A DNA stretch of 64,000 nt from Candidatus Dojkabacteria bacterium (lineage in GTDB: Bacteria; Patescibacteriota; Dojkabacteria; SC72). Of the stretch, positions 7,642-36,351 are shown in pieces. Where the stretch lies: NCBI GenBank assembly GCA_035271645.1, contig DATERJ010000018.1, forward strand, positions 17,399 through 81,398, given 5' to 3'. A model generated the notes under the pieces. It searched no databases. It was not told where the DNA came from and was given only the letters and a program-made list of their open reading frames with translations. Position numbers and translations under genes: made by a program. The first letter of the stretch is position 1. Every line of letters starts with the position of its first letter.

Positions 7642-10600
7642 ATGATTAAGAAAAATAATAGAAAAAAGTTCTTGTTAAGTACTGCTAGTCTTTTTTTGGC
7701 TTTGGGATTGATTTTCTCCGCTGTACAGGATAGTAAGAGAATGGATGATGGAAATAAGAATATCGTTAGCATTAGTGAAGAAGGAGAGGTAAAAGGGGGA
7801 GAGATAATGGCAAACTGTTCATACTACCCATTATGTGATTTTCCAGCAGGACCAGGGGGATGTTATCAAGCAGGTGGATCTTGTGGACCAGGAGAATTCT
7901 CCTGCCCTACAAATCAAAGTGTTTGTTGTGACAGAGGTAGTTGTGGTTCATGTAATCCTTGTACGGGTGTTTATCAAAGTAGTAATAATGGGTGTCCCTC
8001 TACTAGTAAGTCCTGTACCAGATATGACTGTCGTGGGAGTTGCGGCACAACCACTCTCACATGTTATCTCATTCAATACTCCATCAGCTATTCTGCAGGA
8101 AATGGAGGCTCTATCTCAGGGGCAACTAATCAATCCGTGTGTTACAATCAGAGTGGATCACAGGTTACTGCTGTTGCAAATAGTGGATATACCTTCTCCC
8201 AATGGAGTGATGGGAATACATCACCATCGAGAAGTGATGTGGCTACAGGGAATAAAAGTTTTACTGCCAGTTTTACTCAAAGCCCCAACAATCCACCAAC
8301 CACACCTACATCACTACTAACTAATGGACAAACCAATCCTACAAATGTAGATACAGCCACCCCATACTTTAGTGCGATATTTAATGACCCTGATAGTGGA
8401 GATACAGGTGTACACTATCAAATTCAAGTAAATACGAACTCCTCTTTTACTGGGACAACGATGTGGGATAGTGGAAAAACCGCTATGACCTCTACAGCCA
8501 ATGGTTCTAGGAGTCCCAATATTACATACGCAGGTACCAACCTCCCTTTAGATGGAACTATGTACTACTGGAGAATAAAGTTTTGGGATAATAATGGAGC
8601 TGATAGTCCTTGGTCTGCTACTGCACAATTTACTATGCGTTACACAATACCAGCTCCTTCTGGTCTTCTTACTAATGGGCAAACTAATCCAACAGGAGTA
8701 ACTACGCCATACCCATATTTTAGTGCAATATATAATAACTACTCAGGAAGAGGTAATGCTACACATGCACACCTACAAGTTTACTTAGGTAGTGTCCTTC
8801 CAGAAAACCAAGTTTGGAACTTCAATGATGCAATACCCAATGTAGCACCGGGGAACAGAAGTTCAAATATTACATACGGAGGAGATCCACTACCACAAAA
8901 TGGCGCTACATATATTTGGAGAATTAGATTCTGGGATGGGGTGGCCTACTATAGTGAGTGGCAACATGGACAATTCACCATGAATAGTGGAAGTAGTCCT
9001 ACTGCTCCTACTGGCCTTCTAACTAATGGACAAACTAATCCTGTAGGTGTAACTACACCACAACCATACTTTAGTGCAATATTTAATGATCCTAATAGTG
9101 GAGATACTGCTGTGTATTATCAAATCTTTGTTGTTTATTATGATGGTTTTACTTATCAAACTCAATGGGATAGTGGGAAAACTGCTATGACCCCCACCCC
9201 CGTTGGCTCAAGGAGTCCCAATATCACATACAATGGACCAACATTACAAGCAGGTAGAGAATATAACTGGCAAATAAAATTCTGGGATAATTCTGGATTA
9301 GAAGGTGTTTTCTCTAACATTTCTTCAAATCGTTTTACTATGAACACCCCACCTACCGCTCCAACAGCACCATTAACAAATGGGATGACAAACCCAACAG
9401 ATGTAGCCTCCACACCCTACTTTAGTGCTATATTTAACGATGCTGATAGTACAGATACAGGTGTATATTATCAAATCCAAGTCAACACTAATTCCTCCTT
9501 CTCGGGAACAACTATGTGGGATAGTGGAAAAACCGCCATGACAGCCACAAACCCTAGTTCTAGAAGTCCCAATATTAACTATGCTGGGAATACCCTCTCA
9601 TACAATGGAACAACATACTATTGGAGAATTAGGTTCTGGGATAATCATGGGGTAGTTAGTCCCTACTCTTCTACTGCTCAATTCACTACAGTCATATCAG
9701 GCGCTGCGCCCACATCACTTCTAACCAATGGACAAACTAACCCGACAAATGTAGTACCTTCACCAGCACCATACTTTAGTGCAATATTTAATCACAGTAA
9801 TCCAAGTCGTAGAGCAGTACACTATCAGATTATAATGACAGTAAGTGGTATGCAAGTTTGGAATAGTGGAAAAACCTCTATGACCTCTACCGCCCCTGGT
9901 AGTAGATGTCCTAATATTACATACAATGGCTCTCATACCTTAGACCATAATGGAAATGTATACAAATGGACAATTGTCTTCTGGGATGACCTAGGGGTGC
10001 AGACTGCAACCTCAGCAGAAGCACAGTTTACTATGAACAGACGCCCTACTCCACCTACTGGACTACTGACAGAGGGACAAACAAATCCCTCAGGTGTTAC
10101 CGATACAACACCTGAATTTAGTGCGATATATAACAATCCTACTGGAACACCTGCTGTATACTACCAAATTCAAGTAAACGAAAAAGCTAACTTTACTGGT
10201 ACTATGAAATGGGATAGTGGGAAAACTTCAATGGCTTCATTAAGTAATGGCTCAAGAAGCCCAGATATTGAGTATGCTGGTTCTACTCTTACTCAGAATG
10301 GACAAACCTACTTCTGGAAGATTAGATTCTGGGATAATCTGGGAGGTGATGGTGAGTGGTCAGCTGTAAACTACTTCACTATGCACAATAATGCATATAC
10401 CTTTACAATCAGCTCAGAGGGGACACAGGTCAATCCCGTAACAATGGATCGAATAGAGGGAGGTGATGAATTATATATGGGAGGAGTATTTAGTTTTACG
10501 GTGTATAATATTAATCCTGCATTCTCACAGCCGGGAATAACTAGTATTACATTACAAAGAACTTGGACCTCTGGGAGTGGAGATATTGACAGAGCTATTC

Positions 10601-12093
10601 TCCTTTCTACTACAACCGCTTCTGGACAAACCTGTCCTACAACTCTGCCTAGTAGTACTTCATACTTTGGTGGCGCTTCAGACCCATATGGCTCTGGCTC
10701 TAGCGTAACTATAAATGGAAGTCTTGGTGTTGCTCCTGGTCAACAGGGATGTATATATGTGATATATTCATTCGCCCCTAAGAGTGTTTCAGAAGGTAGT
10801 GTATTAGATTTTCAGGTTACAAACTTTACAGCCAACTTCACGGGAACCAAATTTGGACTCCCTGCAAACATAACCGGTACTACAACATTCATACCTACTC
10901 CTAAACCACCTACTTTTACGAACATTACAAACAATGGACCGAAAGATCCTGGGGGAACAATAACATTTAGCACTACATCCTCTGATCCAGATGGTGACAA
11001 TGTGAAATTGGTAGTCTGTAAAACACAAGGTGTTACAGGAACAGCCTGTGATGGTGGCGATGATGATACATACTGTACAAGTAGCTTTGTTGGCTCTAAC
11101 CCATCATGTTCATGGGATATACCATCAGTATATCCTGATGGATCATACTATGCATACCCATACATCTTTGATAGTACTAACTTACCCGCAGATAGCATAC
11201 GACAAGGTGCTGCTCATGCATTTACTGTAAACAATGTAGCACCCTTACCTACAAGCATTAGTATAAATGGAGGAGATGATATTACTCTGGTTACAGGAAC
11301 TACCAAATCCGTAACTTTAAATGTTAGTGTTAGAGATAACAACGGATGTGGTAATGATGAGATTGATACTGTCAAAGCGTATATGTACCGATCTGGAATT
11401 ACTGGTGGATATAGCTCTTGCGATACATTAGATGAGAATAATGCTAACAATTGCTATCCAGAAATACCCTGTACATTTGTGAGTTGTACTGGAACTCAAT
11501 CAGAATTACCCAATATTGCACAATATACATGTAATACAAGTCTCCAATACTATGCTGATCCTACTGACAGTTACTCTCCTTTTCCAGATGAGAGCTGGAT
11601 TGCAACAGTTAAGGCTACTGATAATGGTTTCGGCCTAGGTGGAACAAACCCATTAACAGGGACATGGGGCATTACTAATGGAGTTGATGTAAATTCTCTG
11701 TTGGCATTTAATATTACCCAAGAGTTAAACTACGGAGTACTTCTTGCAGGGCAGATTATCTCACCTCTTGCATCAACAACAACAATTACTTCTGCTGGTA
11801 ATGTAGCTTTGAACCATTCTGTCTCTGGTGATGATATGTGTGAAGACTATCCTGCATGTGAGGGGAGTAAAATTCTTGTTGACCAACAGAAGTATGCTCT
11901 TAATGCTTCAACGGAATGGAAAGATGGGACAAAGCTAAGTGCCACTCCTACAAATGTCTTCACCAACCTACCCAAACAGACTACATCTACACCAACTTCG
12001 GTAAATATCTGGTGGGGGATATTAGCTCCAACAGGAACACCACCCAAGCAATATATAGGAAAAAATACTGTGACTTCTTCTGTTGCCCACTAA
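7642..12093 (+). CDS. Giant (1483 aa) cell-surface protein. Domain order: N-terminal anchor, Cys-rich region, Listeria-Bacteroides-type repeat, six FN3-like tandem repeats, then the C-terminal paralog module.
   Basis: N-terminus FLLSTASLFLALGLIFSAV. Cys-rich CSYYPLCDFPAGPGGCYQAGGSCGPGEFSCP...CCDRGSCGSCNPC. YSISYSAGNGG...GYTFSQWSDG resembles the InlB B-/Flg_new repeat. Repeats carry the motif LLTNGQTNPT.V...PYFSAIFNDPDSGDT..YYQIQVNTNSSF.GTTMWDSGKTAMT...GSRSPNITYAG..L..NGT.YYWRIRFWDN.G..S.WS..AQFT, which resembles the rhamnosidase-type FN3 'W.IRFWD..G..S.WS' motif. The C-terminal module is shared with 2..1228 and 2691..4484. Confidence 0.7.
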   Translation: MIKKNNRKKFLLSTASLFLALGLIFSAVQDSKRMDDGNKNIVSISEEGEVKGGEIMANCSYYPLCDFPAGPGGCYQAGGSCGPGEFSCPTNQSVCCDRGSCGSCNPCTGVYQSSNNGCPSTSKSCTRYDCRGSCGTTTLTCYLIQYSISYSAGNGGSISGATNQSVCYNQSGSQVTAVANSGYTFSQWSDGNTSPSRSDVATGNKSFTASFTQSPNNPPTTPTSLLTNGQTNPTNVDTATPYFSAIFNDPDSGDTGVHYQIQVNTNSSFTGTTMWDSGKTAMTSTANGSRSPNITYAGTNLPLDGTMYYWRIKFWDNNGADSPWSATAQFTMRYTIPAPSGLLTNGQTNPTGVTTPYPYFSAIYNNYSGRGNATHAHLQVYLGSVLPENQVWNFNDAIPNVAPGNRSSNITYGGDPLPQNGATYIWRIRFWDGVAYYSEWQHGQFTMNSGSSPTAPTGLLTNGQTNPVGVTTPQPYFSAIFNDPNSGDTAVYYQIFVVYYDGFTYQTQWDSGKTAMTPTPVGSRSPNITYNGPTLQAGREYNWQIKFWDNSGLEGVFSNISSNRFTMNTPPTAPTAPLTNGMTNPTDVASTPYFSAIFNDADSTDTGVYYQIQVNTNSSFSGTTMWDSGKTAMTATNPSSRSPNINYAGNTLSYNGTTYYWRIRFWDNHGVVSPYSSTAQFTTVISGAAPTSLLTNGQTNPTNVVPSPAPYFSAIFNHSNPSRRAVHYQIIMTVSGMQVWNSGKTSMTSTAPGSRCPNITYNGSHTLDHNGNVYKWTIVFWDDLGVQTATSAEAQFTMNRRPTPPTGLLTEGQTNPSGVTDTTPEFSAIYNNPTGTPAVYYQIQVNEKANFTGTMKWDSGKTSMASLSNGSRSPDIEYAGSTLTQNGQTYFWKIRFWDNLGGDGEWSAVNYFTMHNNAYTFTISSEGTQVNPVTMDRIEGGDELYMGGVFSFTVYNINPAFSQPGITSITLQRTWTSGSGDIDRAILLSTTTASGQTCPTTLPSSTSYFGGASDPYGSGSSVTINGSLGVAPGQQGCIYVIYSFAPKSVSEGSVLDFQVTNFTANFTGTKFGLPANITGTTTFIPTPKPPTFTNITNNGPKDPGGTITFSTTSSDPDGDNVKLVVCKTQGVTGTACDGGDDDTYCTSSFVGSNPSCSWDIPSVYPDGSYYAYPYIFDSTNLPADSIRQGAAHAFTVNNVAPLPTSISINGGDDITLVTGTTKSVTLNVSVRDNNGCGNDEIDTVKAYMYRSGITGGYSSCDTLDENNANNCYPEIPCTFVSCTGTQSELPNIAQYTCNTSLQYYADPTDSYSPFPDESWIATVKATDNGFGLGGTNPLTGTWGITNGVDVNSLLAFNITQELNYGVLLAGQIISPLASTTTITSAGNVALNHSVSGDDMCEDYPACEGSKILVDQQKYALNASTEWKDGTKLSATPTNVFTNLPKQTTSTPTSVNIWWGILAPTGTPPKQYIGKNTVTSSVAH
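8291..10383 (+). repeat. Six tandem in-frame ~349-nt (~116-aa) repeats inside the giant surface-protein gene.
   Basis: Repeat units start with SLLTNGQTNPTNV, GLLTNGQTNPTGV, GLLTNGQTNPVGV, APLTNGMTNPTDV, SLLTNGQTNPTNV and GLLTEGQTNPSGV. Units 1 and 4 share a near-identical stretch VNTNSSF(T/S)GTTMWDSGKTAMT; the DNA 'atgtgggatagtggaaaaaccgc.atgac' recurs at ~8460 and ~9515. Confidence 0.6.
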
Positions 12094-23247: not shown

Positions 23248-24213
23248 TTGTCACAAAAGAAGAATGTAAATATAAGGTTACCAAAGCAAACTAAAGGTAG
23301 ACACACCATATATATTGATGAGTCAGGAACAGCATCATTAAAAGACAAAGAAAAGTTCTTTATACTCACAGGTGTAATTGCTACCAACCACAGTTTTAAT
23401 GATGTTGAAGAATTCTATTTTAACCTAAAAAGAAAATACTTTGGGTATATTCAACATCTACATTCTGTTGAGCTATTTAGTGAAAATACAAAGTATGTAC
23501 GAAAAAGCAAAGCTCAATTGTTTAAGATAAAGAAATATAGAAAAAGATATATACAAGAATTAGCATACTTTTTAGATACTGTACCATTTGTATTTTTAAC
23601 AATCATAGTTGATAAAGAGAGAATGTTAAAAAGTCTATCACCAGTTAAAATAGATCATCCTTGGGCTACCACAATAGGAGAAGCAAAGAAAATATTTACA
23701 GAGACACACAACGATGAAACTCCTTTTATAGATGCAAAAATTGCAGATGTTATAGATACTATTAATAAACACAAAATACTCCCAACCGACTATTTCAGGC
23801 CACTAAAAATTGCATATAGAGAATTGTTAGAACAATATTTTAAAAACTACCAATACAATATTTATACCACAGGATCAAAGATGCAGATATGTGTAGAATC
23901 ATCTGAGTACCAATCACGAATTTTAAAATACACAGAAGAATTTCTATTGGAAACAGATAGGGTGCAACCGAAACCTAAGAGAACAAAATTTTCGAGAAGA
24001 CTAAAAAACAGTATGTACAGTCTATCCTTTCCTAATAAAAAAGCTAAATTTCTTGGTTTAGAGATAGCAGATATTATCTCATATGGTTATTATCTTTCAT
24101 CACATCATAGAAGGTGTAAGAATGAACTCTATAAAGATATTTGGAAAGTTATTGAGAAAAGAAAGAAGGATATTGAACAGAAATATAATATGAGGTGTGT
24201 AGTTAAGATCTAA
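23248..24213 (+). CDS. DUF3800-family protein.
   Basis: N-terminal HTIYIDESGTAS...FFILTGVI motif characteristic of DUF3800. A second DUF3800 gene is at 35114..35740. Confidence 0.5.
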   Translation: MSQKKNVNIRLPKQTKGRHTIYIDESGTASLKDKEKFFILTGVIATNHSFNDVEEFYFNLKRKYFGYIQHLHSVELFSENTKYVRKSKAQLFKIKKYRKRYIQELAYFLDTVPFVFLTIIVDKERMLKSLSPVKIDHPWATTIGEAKKIFTETHNDETPFIDAKIADVIDTINKHKILPTDYFRPLKIAYRELLEQYFKNYQYNIYTTGSKMQICVESSEYQSRILKYTEEFLLETDRVQPKPKRTKFSRRLKNSMYSLSFPNKKAKFLGLEIADIISYGYYLSSHHRRCKNELYKDIWKVIEKRKKDIEQKYNMRCVVKI

Positions 24214-25566: not shown

Positions 25567-26277
25567 CTAAGTTACTACAGAAAACATTTCCAATTTCTCT
25601 TTCCTCTCTTCCCAGTCAGGACACTGCTTAGTTAATAATCTATAAAAATCTTTATCATGTCTCTTGTGCTTCATATGACATAATTCATGAGTAATAACAT
25701 AATCTATACAACTAGTAGGTGCTTTGATTAAATCGATATTCAAATATACTTTTTTATTACTAAGAAAACTACCCCACCTTTTACTCATTTTACGAATATC
25801 TAATACAGGGGTAAATTTATAAGAAAAAGACTTAAGTACCTCTTTATACCTTCTACGAAAAACTATTTCTGCTCTTTCAGAATACCATTTTGACAACAAA
25901 TTCTTATTATGAGAAGAATTACAAACTTCTTTCTTTGTTCTTAGTTCTATAACTCCTTTCTGCAATTTCACAGATTCTTCTTTGCTTTTCTTAACCTTTA
26001 ACTTGTATTGCCTGCCCAAATAATAAAAACTTTCTCCTGATATATAATCCTTCTTATACTTTTTCCCGTTATACTTATCAAAATACCTTATCTGCTTCTC
26101 CATCCAAGACCATTTTCTCTTTAAAAATTTCTCTATCTCCTCTTCCTTTGCCTTTAGTGGAGCTTTAACAACAAGAGATTTATCTGGTTTTACAACCAGA
26201 CTTATCGTCTTCCTCTTACTTTTGAATAGAGAATACTCATATGAGTATTTCCCATAATTAAAAACCTTAGACTTCAT
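25567..26277 (-). CDS. YgjP/DUF45-family (M48-like, WLM/SprT-related) zinc metallopeptidase.
   Basis: HExxH motif ITHELCHMKHKRHDKDF near the C-terminus. It lies directly downstream of hsdR, a known association. Confidence 0.7.
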   Translation of the reverse strand: MKSKVFNYGKYSYEYSLFKSKRKTISLVVKPDKSLVVKAPLKAKEEEIEKFLKRKWSWMEKQIRYFDKYNGKKYKKDYISGESFYYLGRQYKLKVKKSKEESVKLQKGVIELRTKKEVCNSSHNKNLLSKWYSERAEIVFRRRYKEVLKSFSYKFTPVLDIRKMSKRWGSFLSNKKVYLNIDLIKAPTSCIDYVITHELCHMKHKRHDKDFYRLLTKQCPDWEERKEKLEMFSVVT

Positions 26278-26280
26278 TTC

Positions 26281-29200
26281 TTACAAAATTTCATAATTAT
26301 TTTGTGCAAGAGTCATTATTTTCTCAATAAGATCCCATATGTCTTCATTACTTAAATCAACCCCTCTACCTATTTTCACCACATCGTAAAGATAATCATC
26401 TAATTCATTCCTCATCATCCTTTTCTTCTCAGAGTTTATCTGCCAATCAATTACTGCTTCTCTTTTTAGAATCCCAAATATTTCCAAACAACTAACGATG
26501 ATACAATCCTCATCTAGCCCATGCTTTTTAAAATCTCCCCTTAGATTCCTATAAAAGATATCAACCCCTTCATTTGATTTTATTATATCTGGTAAATCTT
26601 CATCCTCTTTGTTAAGTACTTGTCTACTAAGTTCCTTTGCCTGTTTCAAAGCCTCAATATCAGCCAATTTCTTCTCCCTCATTGCCTGAAGCAAAGCATC
26701 TATCTTGTCAGAGAATTTTCTGTAAAACTTTGGATCTTTCCCCATCCTCTCAGAAACTTCTTTCTGTGTTTGTGAGAGAATCGCAGCCGCTTTAGATTTA
26801 TCTGAACCCAAATCCTCTACAGCCTCCTTAAAAGCTTCCTCATCTGTTATTGAAATCTGTGTTGTTAGTAACTCCGCTTCTTCTGCTTTAATATTTTTAT
26901 CCAAAATATTAATCAAGGCCTGTTTGTATTTCTTAAAATCGGGGGCATCAGAGTATCTAATACTGGCTGTTTTCCTAAGATTTGTATATTTCTTAAGATC
27001 CAACTTAAACATATCAATCTTGTCAAAACTGTCTACAAACTCTTTAAGAATAATACACTCATTAAAGATTCTGATAAAAGCATTTAAATCCTCATAGAAT
27101 CCCTTCCTTACCTGCTCATCTTCTAAATGCTCTAAGTATGCCTCATCATCTTCAGGAACATCTTTGAAAGTATCATATAATTTTTCATACTGTGCTTCTA
27201 ACTCCTCTATCTTCTCATCAACATCAATCAAAGTCCCTTTAACATCCTCGTCATCATAGTTACCAAATAAATCCATAGCCGTTTTAAGATTTTTTGCATT
27301 TTCAGAGTAGTCTATGATATATCCTGCTGTTTTCGGTAAGACATCATTTTCAAACAAACGATTTACTCTAGCTATTGCTTGAAGTAGGTTATGATCCTTC
27401 AGTTCTCTGGCTAAATACAAAACTGTGTTTCTCGGAGCATCAAAACCAGTAAGTAGTTTATGAACAACTATCAAAATTTCAACACCATCTTCATTATATT
27501 TAAAACTATCTATAACTTCTCGTTCATAAGATTCTAAACTTTGATATTTACCTTTTATCTCTCTCAGGTATTCTTCAACCTCTTTCTTATGACTATCCTC
27601 ATAACTACTAATTTCATTTTCATCTGATATTACTAATGCAGTATTTATATCTGATTCATTCTGGAAATATCTTTGGAATAATGTTGCTGCATATTTAGAA
27701 GGTGCAACAATCTGAGCTTTAAGTCCAGTTCCTTTTAGGTGCTTGTTAAAATGCTCCTTGATATCATACCCTATCTCAACAATCCTCGCAGGTGTTTCCT
27801 GCATAGCCTTTGTTTCGATCTCTCTCTGTATATCTCGCATGGTAAAGTTATCCTTTTTTAATTCTTCCTCCAATCGTGCTACCTGTTTATCAATCTCCTT
27901 TTCATCCTGTCGCAAATCAACATATCGACCTTCATAAATCAAAGGAAGAACAATACCGTCATTTAAAGCATCATCTATTGTATATCTATCTATAAATCTG
28001 CCAAACTGATTCTCAGATTTCTTTTCCTTAAGAATTGGAGTACCTGTAAAACCAATGTAACAAGCATTAGGTATAACTCTATTCATCTCTAGGTTAGCTT
28101 CTCCTCCCTGAGATCTATGTACCTCATCTATTAACACAAATATATTTTTATCCTTATCTACAAATCCAGCTCGTATGTCTTTTGCTGCTTGGAACTTGAA
28201 TACTAATGTTGTAATCACATCTGGGGTTTTCTCCTTAATCTTTTTTAATAAATCTTTCCCACTTTTCGCTTTCTTTATCTCTTTCTTAAGACCTGCATTC
28301 TCAAAAGTTTCTTTGATTTGCTGATCTAAATCTCTTCTGTCTGTGACAATAAAGATTCTTGGATTCTCTATCTCAGGATCTTCAATTAAGGCTTTGACAA
28401 ACATAACCATTGTTAAAGATTTACCTGAACCTTGTGTTTGCCAAAGAATACCTCCCTCTCTTCTTTCTCCATGTTCTGTTTTCTCTATATTCCTTATCCT
28501 ATTCAATGCTCTCTTGATTGCAAAGAACTGTTGGTATCTCATAACTTTCTTCACACCAGCATCATAAAGTATGTGATTCTTAGAGATATCTAACAATCTC
28601 TCTTTTCTTAACATACCATATACTCCTCTATCTTGTTCAGAAACTTCTCTGTTAGTTTTTTGTTGATGACCATATGTTTGTCCATTTAAATCTTTCAATA
28701 TTTGAGTGTAAAGGGAGTTGTCTATCTCTTTTGATATAACTCTTGTTATTTCATCATCAAACTCCTTCTTAAATTGTTTTCTGTTCTTCCATTCCTCTTC
28801 AGCAATATCTCTTTCCTGCCATTTTGCATAGAAATTGTTTGGTGTTCCTGTTGTTCCATATCTAAAATCTATTTTGTTTGATGCTATTAAAAGCTGAGGG
28901 TAGATAAAGAGTTTAGGACATCTATCTGGACTCTGATTTCTATTCTGTTGAGTTATTGCGAACTCTACTTCCTTGGAAGATTTTTTGTTTTCAATAACAA
29001 CAAAGGGTATACCATTAACAAATATAACTATGTCTGGTCTAATTGTTGATTTACCTGTAGCTTCAAATTCGACTATAAAGGAGAAGTCATTGTTTTCTAT
29101 ATTATCGAAATCTATAAATCTGAAACTTTTTGATTCATATTTACCATTGTGGAAAACTTTTATTGTTTTCCCTCCTTTTTTAGGCATTATTGTTTGATAT

Positions 29201-29475
29201 ATCTTTTTAGATGTATCTATTATTCCTTCCAAAGGAATATTTTCGAGTTCTTCTATAGCTTCTATTATATTTTTATCACTAAAGATTTCTTCTGTTGCAT
29301 TATTTATTCTCTTTAATGATTCAAATGCTGTGTCTTTGAGTATGAACTTATTAGTATCTCCTCTTCTTTCTTCCATTACCTCATTTACAGGTATGTATCT
29401 GTAACCCATGTTTACTAACATTTCTACAAATGGTAGTTGTGATTGTTTTACTTCATCAAAATCTATATCTGTCAT
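26281..29475 (-). CDS. hsdR: Type I restriction enzyme R subunit.
   Basis: 1064 aa. Helicase motif I ILWQTQGSGKSLTMV, motif II VLIDEVHRS, and the N-terminal nuclease region with IVIFVNGIPFVVIENKK (PD-(D/E)xK). Confidence 0.9.
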   Translation of the reverse strand: MTDIDFDEVKQSQLPFVEMLVNMGYRYIPVNEVMEERRGDTNKFILKDTAFESLKRINNATEEIFSDKNIIEAIEELENIPLEGIIDTSKKIYQTIMPKKGGKTIKVFHNGKYESKSFRFIDFDNIENNDFSFIVEFEATGKSTIRPDIVIFVNGIPFVVIENKKSSKEVEFAITQQNRNQSPDRCPKLFIYPQLLIASNKIDFRYGTTGTPNNFYAKWQERDIAEEEWKNRKQFKKEFDDEITRVISKEIDNSLYTQILKDLNGQTYGHQQKTNREVSEQDRGVYGMLRKERLLDISKNHILYDAGVKKVMRYQQFFAIKRALNRIRNIEKTEHGERREGGILWQTQGSGKSLTMVMFVKALIEDPEIENPRIFIVTDRRDLDQQIKETFENAGLKKEIKKAKSGKDLLKKIKEKTPDVITTLVFKFQAAKDIRAGFVDKDKNIFVLIDEVHRSQGGEANLEMNRVIPNACYIGFTGTPILKEKKSENQFGRFIDRYTIDDALNDGIVLPLIYEGRYVDLRQDEKEIDKQVARLEEELKKDNFTMRDIQREIETKAMQETPARIVEIGYDIKEHFNKHLKGTGLKAQIVAPSKYAATLFQRYFQNESDINTALVISDENEISSYEDSHKKEVEEYLREIKGKYQSLESYEREVIDSFKYNEDGVEILIVVHKLLTGFDAPRNTVLYLARELKDHNLLQAIARVNRLFENDVLPKTAGYIIDYSENAKNLKTAMDLFGNYDDEDVKGTLIDVDEKIEELEAQYEKLYDTFKDVPEDDEAYLEHLEDEQVRKGFYEDLNAFIRIFNECIILKEFVDSFDKIDMFKLDLKKYTNLRKTASIRYSDAPDFKKYKQALINILDKNIKAEEAELLTTQISITDEEAFKEAVEDLGSDKSKAAAILSQTQKEVSERMGKDPKFYRKFSDKIDALLQAMREKKLADIEALKQAKELSRQVLNKEDEDLPDIIKSNEGVDIFYRNLRGDFKKHGLDEDCIIVSCLEIFGILKREAVIDWQINSEKKRMMRNELDDYLYDVVKIGRGVDLSNEDIWDLIEKIMTLAQNNYEIL

Positions 29476-29480
29476 ATTCC

Positions 29481-30701
29481 TTATTTATTATTTTTAAATT
29501 TAGGTAATCTAATATTTCCTGTTACTAGGTTATTTATTAGGTATTTTCTTTGTTGTTCCATTAGAGTTTTTTTATTTTCTAATAGTTCTATTTCTTTGTT
29601 GGATTGGGTGAGGATTCTTACTATTTCTTTTTGTTCTTGGAGAGGAGGAATAGTTACAGACATCTTCCTTAAATCACTACCATAAAGATGAACGATTGTT
29701 ATCCCTTGTGCAAGTCGAGCCATGTCTAATTTCTTAGCATATGAAAGATAGTATGCTAGAAATTCACCATCAATATCTTTCTTAGGTCTAAATATATTAA
29801 TATCTCCCCCTAATAAAACATCATCTCTCATTAAACAAGATGCTGTTGCAACATCTAAAGCATTAGTTGTTGTAGATGCTGGAACTAGAACATCACCTTT
29901 AACTGATCGGACTCCTTCACTAATGTTCGTACGACTAGATACTTCATCTATTATATCACCGTATGTTGTATATAACTCACCATACAATATACATTCTTCT
30001 TGTCCATTGTCATCTAATACTGCTTTAGAAAGACCACGACCTTTTAACACACTTACTATGTCTCCTAGTCGATGTTCCTTAAGATAATCTTTTTTAATTG
30101 TTTTATATGAGAGTAGATTTTGTATTAGATATTTTTCAACATTTTTCTTTACTTCTATCTTTTTATCTAAGAGTTCTATGTATTTATCCCATTTTTCTAT
30201 AGTAGATACGATTTCTTTTTGTTCTTCAATAATGGGAGTGTTTATCTTGAAATTACCTATTAAATCTAAAGTCAACTGTGGCTGTGCGCTACCGAATACT
30301 GCTTTGGTTACTTCTCTTGCAAACAAAGAAGAACCCATAAATAATTGTAGATATCTAGTATCTAGACTTTCTTCCATATTACGAATAATAACCATTCCAG
30401 AATTGATTCTTATATGAGAAAATGTAACATCATCACCATAATATGCAAATCTCCCAACTGTCCCTCTAGTTGTTAAGACCAGATCTCCCCTGAACAACTT
30501 ACCATTACCCATCAAGTTGTCTTTCTCTAAAGAAATAAACTTTGTATGAGAGAAATCAAAAGTACCTTCTTGAATATTGTCTGCACTCAGAAATACACAG
30601 TCTCCGTTCTCGGACAAATCATCACTCTTAGGATAGTTTTTCCCCCTGTCCCCATCAATAATTTTTATATTTAAATCTCTTAACTTTTTTCTACAAAACA
30701 T
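29481..30701 (-). CDS. hsdS: Type I R-M specificity subunit with two target-recognition domains.
   Basis: 406 aa. The conserved coiled-coil regions IIEEQKEIVSTIEKWDKYIELLDKKIE and IPPLQEQKEIVRILTQSNKEIELLENKK each repeat once, one per TRD. Confidence 0.85.
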   Translation of the reverse strand: MFCRKKLRDLNIKIIDGDRGKNYPKSDDLSENGDCVFLSADNIQEGTFDFSHTKFISLEKDNLMGNGKLFRGDLVLTTRGTVGRFAYYGDDVTFSHIRINSGMVIIRNMEESLDTRYLQLFMGSSLFAREVTKAVFGSAQPQLTLDLIGNFKINTPIIEEQKEIVSTIEKWDKYIELLDKKIEVKKNVEKYLIQNLLSYKTIKKDYLKEHRLGDIVSVLKGRGLSKAVLDDNGQEECILYGELYTTYGDIIDEVSSRTNISEGVRSVKGDVLVPASTTTNALDVATASCLMRDDVLLGGDINIFRPKKDIDGEFLAYYLSYAKKLDMARLAQGITIVHLYGSDLRKMSVTIPPLQEQKEIVRILTQSNKEIELLENKKTLMEQQRKYLINNLVTGNIRLPKFKNNK

Positions 30702-31822
30702 ATTTCTCTAATATCCCTTTTTAAATTATCTGATTCTCCCTGAACCTTCCCCACCATTCTCTTAGCTCTCTCTAATACATGGTCATAAGTTAGTATACTA
30801 ATATTTTGATAGGTTGAGTTTAATACTCTATACATTTTCTTTTCTTCATCATTCCATTCAATATTTCTACCATATATCAAGGTAATTTTAGGTTTTAATA
30901 ATGTATACCCACCTAATTTCTCAAGATACTCGGCATCATTTATCTTCTTCTCTATTTCTACAAGATACTTCATACATTGTACAGTTGCTTTTGTTAGATT
31001 TGCTGTTGGACATGTATCAGAGGTCCAAAAACTTGAACTCGGCAATTTTAACTCTACAATATCTACAAAACCATCATAAGATTGTAGTAAATAATCTGTG
31101 ATATCATCTTCATCAATATTACGATGATCTAACATTTCCACATATTCCGCACCTAATATCCACTTGTTTTCCTTGAAAAACCTTTGCCAAACCTCTTCAT
31201 CTTTACCAACTCCAAGTTCATTCTTGTATTTTTCAAATTCCGCCTCATCATTCAAGATTTTCTCAAATCTATCGACTGCCCTTTTCCTGTGAGTTATATC
31301 TTCAAGATCACCATACTGAAGTAAATTGAAATTTCTTACAATCTCTGTAAGTTTTTCTTGACCAACAGGATCTTTAACAACTAAATCCAAGAACTTCTTT
31401 AATTCTTCAGGGTTTTCGATGATTGACTTATCCAACATCAAAGTTCTATTTGCAATCGATTCCAAATCCAAATTTGAAAACACATGTAGTAACTGCAAAA
31501 TCCTCTCAAAAGCAAGTGTCGAAAAATGTATCTTTTCCAACCTTTTATTAGACAACTTTGAGATTTCCACTCCATCTATTTTCTTAGAGTTTGTTAAATA
31601 TGTCACTCTTAAACAAATTTTAGGAGATATTTTAATTTTTATATCTTCACCTTCAGAATCTGGGCAATCAGTTACTGAGATATACTTGCCTTCGCCACTA
31701 GCAAAGTCAGCTACATATATAACCCCATTCTTCTTATTTTCTAAAATACTCTCCTCCGAAGTATCAAAAGGTTCTATTCCTGTATAAGCATTATCCATTT
31801 TCAGAATAACTTTTAAACTCAA
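30680..31822 (-). CDS. Embedded PD-(D/E)xK nuclease-like protein, Shedu/DUF4263-like, between hsdM and hsdS.
   Basis: C-terminal region ...ILGAEYVEMLDHRNIDEDDITDYLLQSYDGFVDIVELKLPSSSFW has a D...D..E.K core. Its ~380-aa size and position in the operon resemble single-gene defense nucleases. The start overlaps hsdS by 22 nt and the stop abuts hsdM. Confidence 0.4.
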   Translation of the reverse strand: MSLKVILKMDNAYTGIEPFDTSEESILENKKNGVIYVADFASGEGKYISVTDCPDSEGEDIKIKISPKICLRVTYLTNSKKIDGVEISKLSNKRLEKIHFSTLAFERILQLLHVFSNLDLESIANRTLMLDKSIIENPEELKKFLDLVVKDPVGQEKLTEIVRNFNLLQYGDLEDITHRKRAVDRFEKILNDEAEFEKYKNELGVGKDEEVWQRFFKENKWILGAEYVEMLDHRNIDEDDITDYLLQSYDGFVDIVELKLPSSSFWTSDTCPTANLTKATVQCMKYLVEIEKKINDAEYLEKLGGYTLLKPKITLIYGRNIEWNDEEKKMYRVLNSTYQNISILTYDHVLERAKRMVGKVQGESDNLKRDIREICFVEKS

Positions 31823-31823
31823 C

Positions 31824-33341
31824 TTAACTAATCCCCAAATCCTTAAGACATTCTTTCATCTCTTTCTCTAATCTCTTAAGTTCTGGTTCTATATCTTCTA
31901 ATTCTTTCAAATTAGCTTTAATATCTACTGGTTCCTCCTCCTCAAATGTATCTACATACCTAGTAATATTAAGATTAAAATCATTCTCCTCTATCTCATC
32001 AGGATTAACTACCCTCGCGAACTTCTCAACATCTTTTCTTGCAACATAGGTATCATAAATCTTCTGTATATTCTCATCAGATAATGTATTCTTAGGAGAA
32101 CCTGCTACAAACTCCTTAGATGCTTCTATAAAGAAGATATCTTTCCTATCTTCATTCTCACCACCCTCTTCTCTAGATCTATCTATAATTAGTAAAACAA
32201 CAGGTATATCCGTTGTTTGAAATAACTTTCCTGGTAAACCAATAACAGCATCAATAATATTCTCTTCTATAAATCTTCTTCTTATCTTTCCTTCTGCCCC
32301 ACTTCTAAACAAAACACCATGGGGTACAACTATTACAGCTCTACCAGATTTAGGTTTTAATGTCTCAACTGCATGAGTAATGAAAGCATAATCTCCATTC
32401 CCTTTTGGTGGAATACCTCTAAAGAACCTATTGTATTTATCACCCTCAGCATTCTCAGCTCCCCATTTATCTAAAGAATATGGAGGATTTGCTACGATAA
32501 TATCAAACTTCATTAACCTATCATTCTCTACCAATTGAGGATTGTTTAATGTATCACCCCATTCAATTCTTGCATCATCTTTACCATGAAGAAACATATT
32601 CATTCTACATAATTGATATGTACTACCTTTTGATTCCTGCCCATACAATGCATAGTCCTTAGAACCACTCTCTTCAACTTCTTTACCTGCTAGTAGGAGC
32701 ATACCTCCAGAGCCACATGCAAAATCCGCTATCCTATCACCCTTTTTAGGTTGTGCAAGTTTAGCTACAATTTTAGAAATTTGAGTAGGAGAAAAGAATT
32801 CTCCTGCTTTTTTACCTGCATCTGCTCCAAACCTCTCAATCATGTACATATATGCATTACCCATAACATCATCATCTACATCTGTTAAATCTATCTTTGC
32901 AAAATCTTTAATCAAATTCCTAATCATCTTGTTTCTCTCCTCTAACTTTCCTAATACTGCTTCTGAATTGAAATCTACACTAAATACTCCTCCTAACTTT
33001 GCTTCATTAGCATCTTCTATCTTAGCAAGTACCTTGTTCAATTCTTCTCCAATATTATCCTCTTCCATAATGCTGTAAATGTAGTCAAAAGATGTATTTG
33101 GAGGAAGATAGAATCTATCAAGTTTCATTTTTGCCTCTATTCTTTCCTTATCATTAGCAAATCTCTCTTTATATTCTTCCCTCTTTTTATTTGATAAATC
33201 ACTAAGATATTTGAAGAACAACATAACTAAAACATAATCCTTGTATATACTGGCATCTACTGCTGTCCTAGATGAGTCTGCAGCTGCCCAAAGAACTTTA
33301 TTAAGTTCTTCTTGTGAATATTTCTTGGTGTTTCTTGCCAT
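31824..33341 (-). CDS. hsdM: Type I R-M N6-adenine DNA methyltransferase subunit.
   Basis: N-terminal HsdM helical domain, FADFACGSGGMLL (motif I) and VANPPYS (motif IV). Confidence 0.9.
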   Translation of the reverse strand: MARNTKKYSQEELNKVLWAAADSSRTAVDASIYKDYVLVMLFFKYLSDLSNKKREEYKERFANDKERIEAKMKLDRFYLPPNTSFDYIYSIMEEDNIGEELNKVLAKIEDANEAKLGGVFSVDFNSEAVLGKLEERNKMIRNLIKDFAKIDLTDVDDDVMGNAYMYMIERFGADAGKKAGEFFSPTQISKIVAKLAQPKKGDRIADFACGSGGMLLLAGKEVEESGSKDYALYGQESKGSTYQLCRMNMFLHGKDDARIEWGDTLNNPQLVENDRLMKFDIIVANPPYSLDKWGAENAEGDKYNRFFRGIPPKGNGDYAFITHAVETLKPKSGRAVIVVPHGVLFRSGAEGKIRRRFIEENIIDAVIGLPGKLFQTTDIPVVLLIIDRSREEGGENEDRKDIFFIEASKEFVAGSPKNTLSDENIQKIYDTYVARKDVEKFARVVNPDEIEENDFNLNITRYVDTFEEEEPVDIKANLKELEDIEPELKRLEKEMKECLKDLGIS

Positions 33342-33350
33342 TTTAATTTT

Positions 33351-33929
33351 TTAAAAATTTAATTTCTTAACAGCATAATTAAGAATATTTTCATTAATAT
33401 CCTTCTTCCTATCTAAAAGATCTTTCTGTTTAACAATATTATCATACAAAGAGATGATTCTTTTTTGATATTCGATATCTGGGACTGGTATATTTAATCT
33501 TTCTAATTGGCTTTTAGAAATTCCTTTTATATATGCTCCAATACTTATTTTCTCTAATTCCTTCTGACCTTCAGGAGAGGAGAGATATATTGCTAAATAC
33601 TTTGGAATTAGTTTTTTGTTATTTACTCTGACAACTAGAATGGATGATGTTGCTATTGCATCGAGGTTTTCATCAAAGTAACCCACAGTCGAATTACCTT
33701 TTGAGGCTACTAATACATCCCTTTTCTTAAGGAAGGCAAGGGTTTCTAGGTCATCTGTATCAACTTTCTGTAAAGATTCTAGATCAAAATTGATAGAATT
33801 AGGAAGTAAATCTTGAGATTGAATTACCAGTGTTTTTCCTTGGGGCATTTTAGCAACAGACATTCTAAATGAGTATCCTGACAATATATCTGCTACTTGA
33901 TTTAGTCTATATCTCTCTATCATACACAC
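33351..33929 (-). CDS. Half-size HsdS (single target-recognition domain) upstream of hsdM.
   Basis: 192 aa. One TRD plus the conserved HsdS helix ISKSQLERLNIPVPDIEYQKRIISLYDNIV... Confidence 0.65.
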   Translation of the reverse strand: MCMIERYRLNQVADILSGYSFRMSVAKMPQGKTLVIQSQDLLPNSINFDLESLQKVDTDDLETLAFLKKRDVLVASKGNSTVGYFDENLDAIATSSILVVRVNNKKLIPKYLAIYLSSPEGQKELEKISIGAYIKGISKSQLERLNIPVPDIEYQKRIISLYDNIVKQKDLLDRKKDINENILNYAVKKLNF

Positions 33930-33961
33930 ATTATAGCACAGGTGTTTAAATTTGTCAAGCC

Positions 33962-35113: not shown

Positions 35114-35740
35114 CTATTTCATCACACAAACATCTATAACCTTTTTCCTTATCACTTCTAGATATATATCACTATCATTTCTTCCCCTCTCTAAAGATTT
35201 GTATATACTACCAACAACCATATCAACAACTTGTATCATCGGTTCACTCCTAGAATCTACATATTTAACCCCTGAGATATATTTATCTTTATATTTCCCA
35301 TTCAACCCCCTTATTTCAGAATTAATAGCTCTTTTCATTTCTCTCTCTTTCTTACCATCTACCACTAGTTTCGCAGAATCTAACAAATGAAGATTCTTTG
35401 TTAGTAATTGTCTAAAAAAGTAATTGTAATAATCATGTTTATTCTTTATGACAACATGAGAAAAGTACGAGTTCTTATCAACCACTAAACACACAACTCT
35501 CATATCAAAATCTTTTACAAGAGAAAGAAATTTCAGCCTTAACTCTTTGTTCGCCTTTCGAAACTTAAATTCAAAACAATCACTTTTTCCTAGTGATTTC
35601 TTAAATCTCACAACCTCCCTCCTACTCTTTTCTACTACCGATTTAGAATTAAAGAGAATCATACATAGCACAAAGAAAGGACTAGAACCCTTATCTAGCT
35701 TAATACCTGGATCTCCTGATTCATCTATGAAAACAATCAT
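35114..35740 (-). CDS. DUF3800-family protein, second copy.
   Basis: N-terminal MIVFIDESGDPG...FFVLCMILF; same family as 23248..24213. Confidence 0.5.
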   Translation of the reverse strand: MIVFIDESGDPGIKLDKGSSPFFVLCMILFNSKSVVEKSRREVVRFKKSLGKSDCFEFKFRKANKELRLKFLSLVKDFDMRVVCLVVDKNSYFSHVVIKNKHDYYNYFFRQLLTKNLHLLDSAKLVVDGKKEREMKRAINSEIRGLNGKYKDKYISGVKYVDSRSEPMIQVVDMVVGSIYKSLERGRNDSDIYLEVIRKKVIDVCVMK

Positions 35741-35826: not shown

Positions 35827-36351
35827 ATGCTATACTATCCTATGCCCAATCTACTAATATATATATTAATATTAATCCCCATACTCCTTGTACTAACCAT
35901 TCTCTCATCATTATCAAACAAAGGTCGTCTAAACAAAAATCTAAAAGCATATACATATACAAGAAAACCATACATCATGACCAAAGGAGAAAATGAATTC
36001 TTTCAAGTACTAACCAAAATACTTCAAAACAAATATTACATATTTCCTCAAATACACCTAACAACATTCCTAGAACACAAAGTAATGGGACAAACATGGA
36101 AAGGTGCTAAAGCTCATATAGATAGATTATCTGTAGACTATGTAATATGTGATAAGAAATATCTCTCTCCCATGATCGCAATCGAATTAGATGACTCTAC
36201 ACATAACAGAGGGGATAGGATTGTAAGAGATACAGAAGTAGAAAGAATATTACAAGAAGCTAAAGTACCACTAATTAGAATCCCATATACTGATAGATTT
36301 AAGGAAGAAGAGATTAAAGAGAAAGTTTTTCAATATCTCAAATCTAACTAA
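35827..36351 (+). CDS. DUF2726-family protein (PD-(D/E)xK / NERD-like) with an N-terminal membrane anchor.
   Basis: TKGENEFFQVL...IFPQIHL...HIDRLSVDYVICDKKYLSPMIAIELDDSTHNRGDRIVRD...KVPLIRIP matches the DUF2726 core. N-terminal TM LLIYILILIPILLVLTIL. Confidence 0.65.
   Translation: MLYYPMPNLLIYILILIPILLVLTILSSLSNKGRLNKNLKAYTYTRKPYIMTKGENEFFQVLTKILQNKYYIFPQIHLTTFLEHKVMGQTWKGAKAHIDRLSVDYVICDKKYLSPMIAIELDDSTHNRGDRIVRDTEVERILQEAKVPLIRIPYTDRFKEEEIKEKVFQYLKSN

Follow-up and report, generated by a model that had tools for sequence, protein, structure and literature searches.

Several precedents exist for genes embedded in type I restriction-modification (R-M) operons, namely PrrC, TgvAB, and the candidates of a systematic "guilt-by-embedding" survey (Payne et al). 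For the Shedu nuclease (SduA), 602 of 5,499 genes (~11%) were located within type I, II, III, or IV R-M loci, and it was suggested that Shedu complements R-M (Gu et al, bioRxiv 10.1101/2023.08.10.552793/Mol Cell 2025); diverse N-terminal sensors have been described for Shedu, and SduA of Escherichia coli is reported by Loeff et al to clamp free DNA ends and nick linear DNA. With respect to the specificity subunit HsdS, BlihIA of Bacillus licheniformis and a type I variant of S. xylosus have a full and a half HsdS in one operon, and truncated HsdS subunits dimerize and read palindromic sites (PMC12429846). Here, we analyzed a six-gene operon on the minus strand at positions 25567-33929 of a 64-kb stretch of contig DATERJ010000018.1 from Candidatus Dojkabacteria bacterium (the window), using related loci (designated L with a number) for comparison. 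With a probability of roughly 75%, we consider this locus to be a single-promoter defense operon, in which a type I R-M system is combined with a second HsdS having a single target recognition domain (TRD), a Shedu nuclease, and a closing YgjP-like peptidase.

Open reading frame (ORF) calling reproduced exactly the six minus-strand genes that the original prediction had delineated (25567-26277, 26281-29475, 29481-30701, 30680-31822, 31824-33341, and 33351-33929). Profile searches using Pfam, PADLOC, and NCBIfam agreed for every gene with the proposed identities of half-HsdS, HsdM, two-TRD HsdS, HsdR, and a DUF45/YgjP HExxH peptidase; a failure to assign HsdR, HsdM, HsdS, and DUF45 had been named beforehand as grounds for rejection, and all of them were assigned. 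The gene embedded between hsdM and hsdS, which had been described as PD-(D/E)xK-like, was correctly called a nuclease and can now be named Shedu (SduA, PF14082/DUF4263). Because the six family assignments exceed the curated Pfam thresholds by large margins, the six-gene pattern does not consist of chance ORFs. At the junctions, half-hsdS and hsdM are separated by 9 nt, hsdS and hsdR by 5 nt, and hsdR and ygjP by 3 nt, and sduA and hsdS overlap by 22 nt. The gap between hsdM and sduA is 1 nt with a TTG start (31822) or 25 nt with an ATG start (31798), the latter being the start in homologues and in the gene call of a sister contig (L081, see below). The predicted gaps of 1-9 nt were thus found, with 25 nt to be added for sduA if it starts at ATG, whereas the predicted overlaps of 4-22 nt were reduced to the one of 22 nt, there being no overlap of 4 nt. 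Compared with L081, the ratio of nonsynonymous to synonymous substitution rates (dN/dS) was 0.01-0.24 for every gene except for the hsdS TRDs, although substitution counts are small in the short genes, and all operon genes but the hsdS TRDs are, on this estimate, under purifying selection, which is consistent with function. Taken together, the locus is, by sequence, an intact type I R-M operon that carries, in addition, Shedu as an anti-phage nuclease unrelated to R-M, as well as a zinc peptidase.

The operon promoter sits in the 32-nt gap between the stop codon of ddl and half-hsdS. It is the sole 12/12 sigma-70 match in the window, where 0.17 would be expected, and it is unchanged in L081; furthermore, a near-consensus sequence (TTGACG-17-TAGAAT) lies 6 nt ahead of the half-hsdS ATG in L001. 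The -10 box ends at 33930, 1 nt before the GTG at 33929 and 7 nt before the ATG at 33923. The half-hsdS ORF of 33929-33351 was retained from the original prediction, whereas its GTG start was abandoned in favor of the more likely ATG, and the position of this ATG 7 nt after the -10 box indicates that the first gene is probably of 190 amino acids (aa) and translated from a leaderless mRNA. No Shine-Dalgarno sequence was evident ahead of hsdM or sduA in the window sequence. No convincing terminator was found between the genes, and the sole minus-strand terminator-like site was weak and located inside hsdS. As for internal promoters, 46 sigma-70-like sites were found compared with 49 in the shuffled expectation, which is evidence neither for nor against them. 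The presence of a single promoter together with the lack of a convincing terminator supports, without proving, the predicted co-transcription of the six genes.

The three core subunits indicated a complete type I R-M system. HsdM matched PF02384 (N6_Mtase) at 335 bits, HsdM_N, and TIGR00497 at 289 bits against a cut-off of 243, and its motifs, DFACGSG at 206 and NPPY at residue 285, are intact, so that it has the S-adenosylmethionine-binding and NPP[YFW] motifs of a gamma-class N6-adenine methyltransferase (MTase) of type I. The full HsdS has two TRDs, as PF01420 matched in two stretches and the comparison with L081 delimited two variable TRDs and two conserved regions. HsdR matched TIGR00348 at 476 bits against a cut-off of 285 and has an N-terminal PD-(D/E)xK nuclease (D148...E-N-K) and a superfamily 2 (SF2) ATPase motor (GSGKS at 349 and DEVH at 450), all with intact motifs; its closest solved structure is EcoR124 HsdR (4e-40, residues 289-869). 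The dN/dS values were 0.01 for hsdM and 0.12 for hsdR. HsdM, HsdS, and HsdR hence constitute a complete type I R-M system with intact catalytic motifs.

SduA matched PF14082 in its C-terminal half (70.6 bits against a cut-off of 27) and the PADLOC SduA profile PDLC00385 (1.2e-61), and its C-terminal DUF4263 nuclease of the PD-(D/E)xK type is preceded by a helical linker and, at the N-terminus, by a beta/alpha domain specific to the clade. With Shedu motifs I-IV (E, D, ExK, and Q) defined as for B. cereus Shedu by Gu et al, the residues E209, D250, E257-x-K259, and Q282 (numbering from the TTG start) were invariant in 27 close homologues; in 60 diverse members, D, E, K, and Q were also invariant and the Glu of motif I was present in at least 90%. 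Furthermore, the family profile matched the solved Shedu structures 8TI8 and 8PS4, the fold of the nuclease core in a monomer prediction agreed with solved Shedu, and the dN/dS was 0.14. The embedded gene product is, by these signatures, a type-1 Shedu nuclease and is predicted to be active. Its N-terminal 190 residues matched no Pfam family, and the solved structures, that of the E. coli end-sensing clamp among them, held no detectable relative of this domain. AlphaFold gave a pLDDT below 50 for the domain with an alignment of 27 close homologues and of 84.7 with 60 diverse members; it was modeled as a five-stranded sheet packed on a helix, which could be assigned neither to the sPC4/Whirly fold nor to the E. 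coli clamp. Beyond a marginal 1e-3 match, neither Pfam nor PADLOC indicated an ATPase domain in SduA, unlike PrrC/RloC-type proteins. The C-termini of SduA differ between the strains, with ...VGKVQGESDNLKRDIREICFVEKS in the window and ...VGFVN in L081, and in many clade members the protein closes with an acidic stretch plus IPF.

Whole-protein homologues of SduA were 50-69% identical and ~350-380 aa long, and their sources were mostly named Patescibacteria/candidate phyla radiation (CPR). Since a word-indexed search with the N-terminal domain alone gave only 14 same-family fragments, we used an exhaustive HMMER search of 1.84 billion representatives, in which the N-terminal-domain profile matched only 91 clusters at 50% identity, all of at most 411 aa and with the domain at the N-terminus. 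SduA_C was found in all 60 full-length clade members (60/60), with no other recurrent Pfam domain; one member had a borderline DUF3781 match (E 0.00097). The N-terminal domain thus appears to be confined to a single protein type, which makes up a small Shedu clade mainly in Patescibacteria. To survey the genomic context, 20 genome and 57 metagenome loci of the close clade were annotated with locally built HsdM, HsdS, HsdR, and YgjP profiles and deduplicated at 95% identity into 65 clusters, of which 59 were informative and six were on contigs too short to judge. SduA was embedded in a same-strand hsd operon in 52 of the 59 informative clusters (88%), most commonly in the order M-SduA-S-R and otherwise as M-S-SduA-R(-YgjP), R-M-SduA-S, or halfS-M-SduA-S-R-YgjP. 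For comparison, hsdM was nearby in only four of 60 loci with unrelated Shedu N-termini. Among distant Bacteroidota members with the same N-terminal domain, two (L023 and L026) directly follow MmeI/Eco57I-type IIG enzymes, and one (L024) lies inside a type I operon.

We propose that SduA would be expressed together with the R-M enzyme and form a second layer of defense as a DNA nuclease. If it works as E. coli SduA does, it would most likely attack linear or cut foreign DNA, including the double-strand ends produced by type I cleavage, and would spare the circular, methylated host chromosome. A link of SduA to R-M would more likely run through DNA than through docking to the Hsd subunits. The partner HsdM proteins fall into at least seven families at less than 45% identity. 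The median pairwise identity was 55% for SduA and 35% for HsdM with a Spearman rho of 0.15, and 41 of 89 locus pairs with an SduA identity of at least 55% had an HsdM identity below 35%. In addition, even the near-identical strains of the window and L081 differ in the C-terminal tail of SduA. The lack of SduA-HsdM co-evolution and the unconserved tail argue against PrrC-like, partner-specific docking and favor a DNA link or simple co-transfer and co-expression. The occurrence of one SduA clade beside at least seven unrelated HsdM families, and occasionally by type II/IIG enzymes, without co-evolution suggests that coupling at the DNA level may be more likely than Hsd docking.

Several points weigh against this reading of the operon. 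Hsd genes were absent from the vicinity of SduA in seven of the 59 informative clusters, indicating that SduA has no strict need of an R-M partner in cis. Two of these seven are beside type II R-M genes, L019 after a Dam-class MTase and L104 after two Dam-class MTases and an AlwI-type endonuclease; those of L094/96 adjoin a Schlafen-helicase/GIY-YIG/S24 protein, and the remaining ones look solitary. The same slots of related operons are also occupied by unrelated passengers, namely AAA_21, AAA_13, Bro-N, RhuM, Mrr, ExoX-like, and GIY-YIG/DUF4357 genes, and with so many of them, embedding alone may reflect co-transfer and not functional coupling. Moreover, moving the "free DNA end" mechanism onto an N-terminal domain with no detectable relationship to the E. 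coli clamp is a weak analogy, and we infer co-transcription, the two specificities, and the SduA activity alike from sequence.

The stand-alone members and the varied passengers therefore keep alive an explanation by co-transfer, namely that an autonomous, single-gene Shedu hitch-hikes in hsd operons for shared expression and transfer with no mechanistic link to R-M. Shedu is experimentally a one-gene system (Loeff et al, Gu et al), and embedding has been discussed by Payne et al in terms of linked selection and transfer; the seven stand-alone members would fit autonomy, without demonstrating it. However, the 88% embedding in the clade is far above the proportion for Shedu overall, the association holds across the HsdM families, and its extension to type IIG, Dam, and AlwI neighbors in outliers and distant members is not easily neutral. 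We regard pure hitch-hiking as possible but doubtful. On the other hand, the high rate of embedding across many Hsd families makes the clade a candidate dedicated R-M accessory, in which the N-terminal domain might sense the product or state of N6-methyladenine R-M (restriction ends or unmethylated DNA) and SduA would finish the restricted DNA. In this specific form the idea is unlikely; if true, an accessory SduA could stand in for DNA degradation of the RecBCD/AddAB type, which may be missing from CPR bacteria with their reduced genomes.

A guard function resembling that of PrrC would have SduA held inactive on the Hsd complex and set free, as a suicide or backup nuclease, once R-M is disabled by a phage anti-restriction protein such as Ocr, ArdA, or Stp. 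Among genes embedded in type I operons, PrrC is the textbook example and occurs almost nowhere else, the near-exclusive embedding of the SduA clade is the same distribution signature, and the conserved acidic C-terminal tail ending in IPF in many members could be a docking peptide. SduA, however, keeps an identity of ~55% while the partner HsdM falls to 26-40% in the HsdM families, and some members are found by type II Dam/AlwI or MmeI-like enzymes, or alone. The tail, moreover, differs between the window and the 98%-identical sister strain, and SduA has no ABC-ATPase or anticodon-nuclease domain. Such a guard is thus rather improbable, and the link through DNA is preferred to it.

With respect to the second specificity subunit, the half-HsdS shares 23% aa identity with TRD1 of the full HsdS. 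Half-HsdS would dimerize and, with HsdM, add a palindromic specificity beside the bipartite site of the full HsdS; a second, palindromic specificity may, by analogy with the truncated subunits described above, be its likeliest role. It could instead be a decaying remnant or a silent recombination donor, since phase-variable type I loci are reported to contain single-TRD hsdS fragments commonly, as silent cassettes (PMC7672463), and the dN/dS of half-hsdS against L081 (0.21) is an imprecise estimate from only nine substitutions. Nevertheless, its ORF is intact and the first gene behind a perfect promoter. Promoter-proximal half-hsdS genes with different TRDs (31-33% identity) recur in L001, L003, L083/84/120, and L087, so that the position is kept in at least five other lineages. 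Both hsdS copies are on one strand, they had no repeats of at least 14 nt in common, direct or inverted, other than matches at the level of chance, and no recombinase was found among the scanned neighbors of the operon. We therefore consider a remnant very improbable, and a working subunit is the preferred interpretation. A phase-variable hsdS shufflon (epigenetic inverton) was ruled out by the lack of shared repeats, the common strand, the 23% identity, and the lack of a recombinase among the scanned neighbors, as was SduA in the place of HsdR by the intact hsdR in the operon.

The closing gene encodes a YgjP/DUF45 protein, of which PF01863 covers 205 of 207 profile positions, with weaker WLM (4e-6) and SprT-like matches; its HExxH motif is HELCH at residue 197, its dN/dS was 0.11, and a sequence search found no solved relative. 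A YgjP-like gene follows HsdR in L001, L003 (twice), L004, L009, L013, L081, and several metagenome loci. The original prediction called DUF45 beside hsdR a recognized association, of which the recurrence in many related loci was borne out, whereas our literature search found no paper stating it; the association reportedly goes back to comparative-genomics work on COG1451. YgjP would be an accessory protease, and one possibility is the turnover of HsdR, that is, restriction alleviation, which is speculation. In L003 (62-1922 and 7843-16184), two type I systems lie within 16 kb, each with a YgjP-like gene directly after HsdR, and SduA and half-hsdS are found in the second system only.

The comparison with a sister strain was made possible by the SduA cluster representative P0001 (100%-identical), which led to the 80.6-kb ENA contig L081. 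The gene order of L081 is the same (ddl, half-hsdS, hsdM, sduA, hsdS, hsdR, and ygjP), and the blastn identity was 97.9% over the stretch that begins with ddl and takes in most of sduA, and 93.6% over hsdR and ygjP. In hsdS, by contrast, only the central (30127-30231) and 3' conserved regions aligned, at 94%, and the overall aa identity was 46%; both TRDs of the full hsdS have thus been exchanged between the strains, and the rest of the operon has been kept. The left breakpoint of this swap is inside the 3' end of sduA (window 30680-30750 on the minus strand and L081 11049-11062), so that the C-terminal tail of the window SduA is longer than that of P0001 and differs from it. The strains also differ past ygjP and between ddl and mnmA, where genes for DUF3800, DUF2726, and HD-domain proteins are found, indicating that the operon sits among variable cargo. 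The DUF3800 and DUF2726 flanks (Table 1) look like swappable defense-island cargo around a fixed R-M operon.

Table 1. Positions of the operon genes, their promoter, and flanking genes in the window, and of passenger genes in related loci.
Feature	Position	Strand	Description
Operon promoter	33930..33958	-	TTGACA-17 nt-TATAAT, extended TG (TGcTATAAT), 12/12 match
half-hsdS	33351..33923	-	190 aa; one TRD and one conserved helix; PF01420 1.4e-12, one stretch
hsdM	31824..33341	-	N6-adenine DNA methyltransferase subunit, 505 aa; HsdM_N and N6_Mtase 6e-100
sduA	30680..31798	-	Type-1 Shedu nuclease (predicted); 372 aa (ATG), 380 aa if TTG at 31822
full hsdS	29481..30701	-	406 aa; PF01420, two stretches
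hsdS TRD1	~30232-30701		
hsdS central conserved region	30127-30231		
hsdS TRD2	~29658-30126		
hsdS C-terminal conserved region	below 29657		
hsdR	26281..29475	-	Restriction/translocase subunit, 1064 aa; HSDR_N, SWI2_SNF2/ResIII, and T1R_D3
ygjP-like (DUF45)	25567..26277	-	Zinc metallopeptidase, 236 aa; PF01863 191 bits
DUF3800 gene	35114-35740	-	PADLOC PDC-M04A 9e-12, and DUF3800_VII
DUF2726 gene	35827-36351	+	REase-like, weak MTES_1575 match; beside DUF3800 gene at 35114-35740
DUF3800 gene	23248-24213	+	No PADLOC match
Passenger genes	L002 7757-9596; L008 11052-12161; L004 8639-9975, 12298-13644; L009 12281-13099; L017 14853-15647; L012 15398-16297; L024 16526-17425		

In related CPR operons, the passengers embedded between hsd genes include an AAA_21 ATPase with a 215-aa ORF, an AAA_13 ATPase (PrrC/RloC-like), a Bro-N protein, and ORFs that have no Pfam match (e.g., 448 aa in L004 and 272 aa in L009), and those directly after HsdR include RhuM, an ExoX-like exonuclease, and Mrr. 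Uncharacterized defense genes could be among these passengers. In L094 (5700-7859; also in L096), where SduA lies outside an R-M locus, its neighbors are a 719-aa protein in which GIY-YIG, a Schlafen-type helicase, and an S24 peptidase are fused, and an HTH-SocA/Panacea gene, which is an unusual, defense-like setting. Elsewhere in the window, a 1483-aa ORF at 7642-12093 on the plus strand has six Rha78A-like Ig repeats and a Listeria-Bacteroides repeat and is likely to encode a large protein of the cell surface; the GC content of this left portion of the window is higher (~0.37-0.44, compared with 0.28-0.33 at 13-25 kb).

This operon would represent compact layered immunity, with two putative specificities, two nucleases, and one protease behind one promoter, in a host lineage (Patescibacteria/CPR) the defense biology of which is almost without experimental tests. 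The SduA clade, in particular, is a good test case for whether embedded defense genes cooperate with the host system or merely travel along.

When compared with known systems, every element of the operon arrangement has already been published, and the operon is mostly ordinary layered phage defense that, as such, leaves current understanding unchanged. The HsdR of the type IC enzyme EcoR124I shares the nuclease-plus-SF2-motor architecture of the window HsdR, although it is only a distant relative. BlihIA is likewise one type I operon with a full two-TRD and a single-TRD HsdS, whereas in the window the half-HsdS gene comes first, upstream of hsdM, and Shedu and YgjP are also present. The type-1 Shedu proteins of B. 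cereus (PDB 8TI8/8TI9) and E. coli (8PS4) have, as does the window SduA, a C-terminal DUF4263 with the four motifs, a helical linker, and a length of ~370 aa, but the N-terminal domain of the window SduA matches neither of them, nor Pfam, in sequence or fold. EcoprrI-PrrC of E. coli (prrABCD) is similar in that a latent nuclease is embedded in a type I hsd operon and its family is found almost only there; PrrC, however, acts on tRNA as an ABC-ATPase anticodon nuclease and is held by the R-M complex, whereas SduA is a DNA nuclease of another fold that, unlike such a partner-held protein, shows no co-evolution with its Hsd partner. TgvAB also consists of independent defense genes nested in a same-strand type I R-M cluster, but is a two-gene, modification-dependent type IV restriction system and not Shedu. 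The Shedu genes within R-M loci described by Gu et al are exactly the arrangement of the window. Their study gives an aggregate count, whereas the incremental finding here is a single clade defined by its N-terminal domain and, by our survey, found mainly in Patescibacteria, ~88% of which is embedded in type I operons of many Hsd families.

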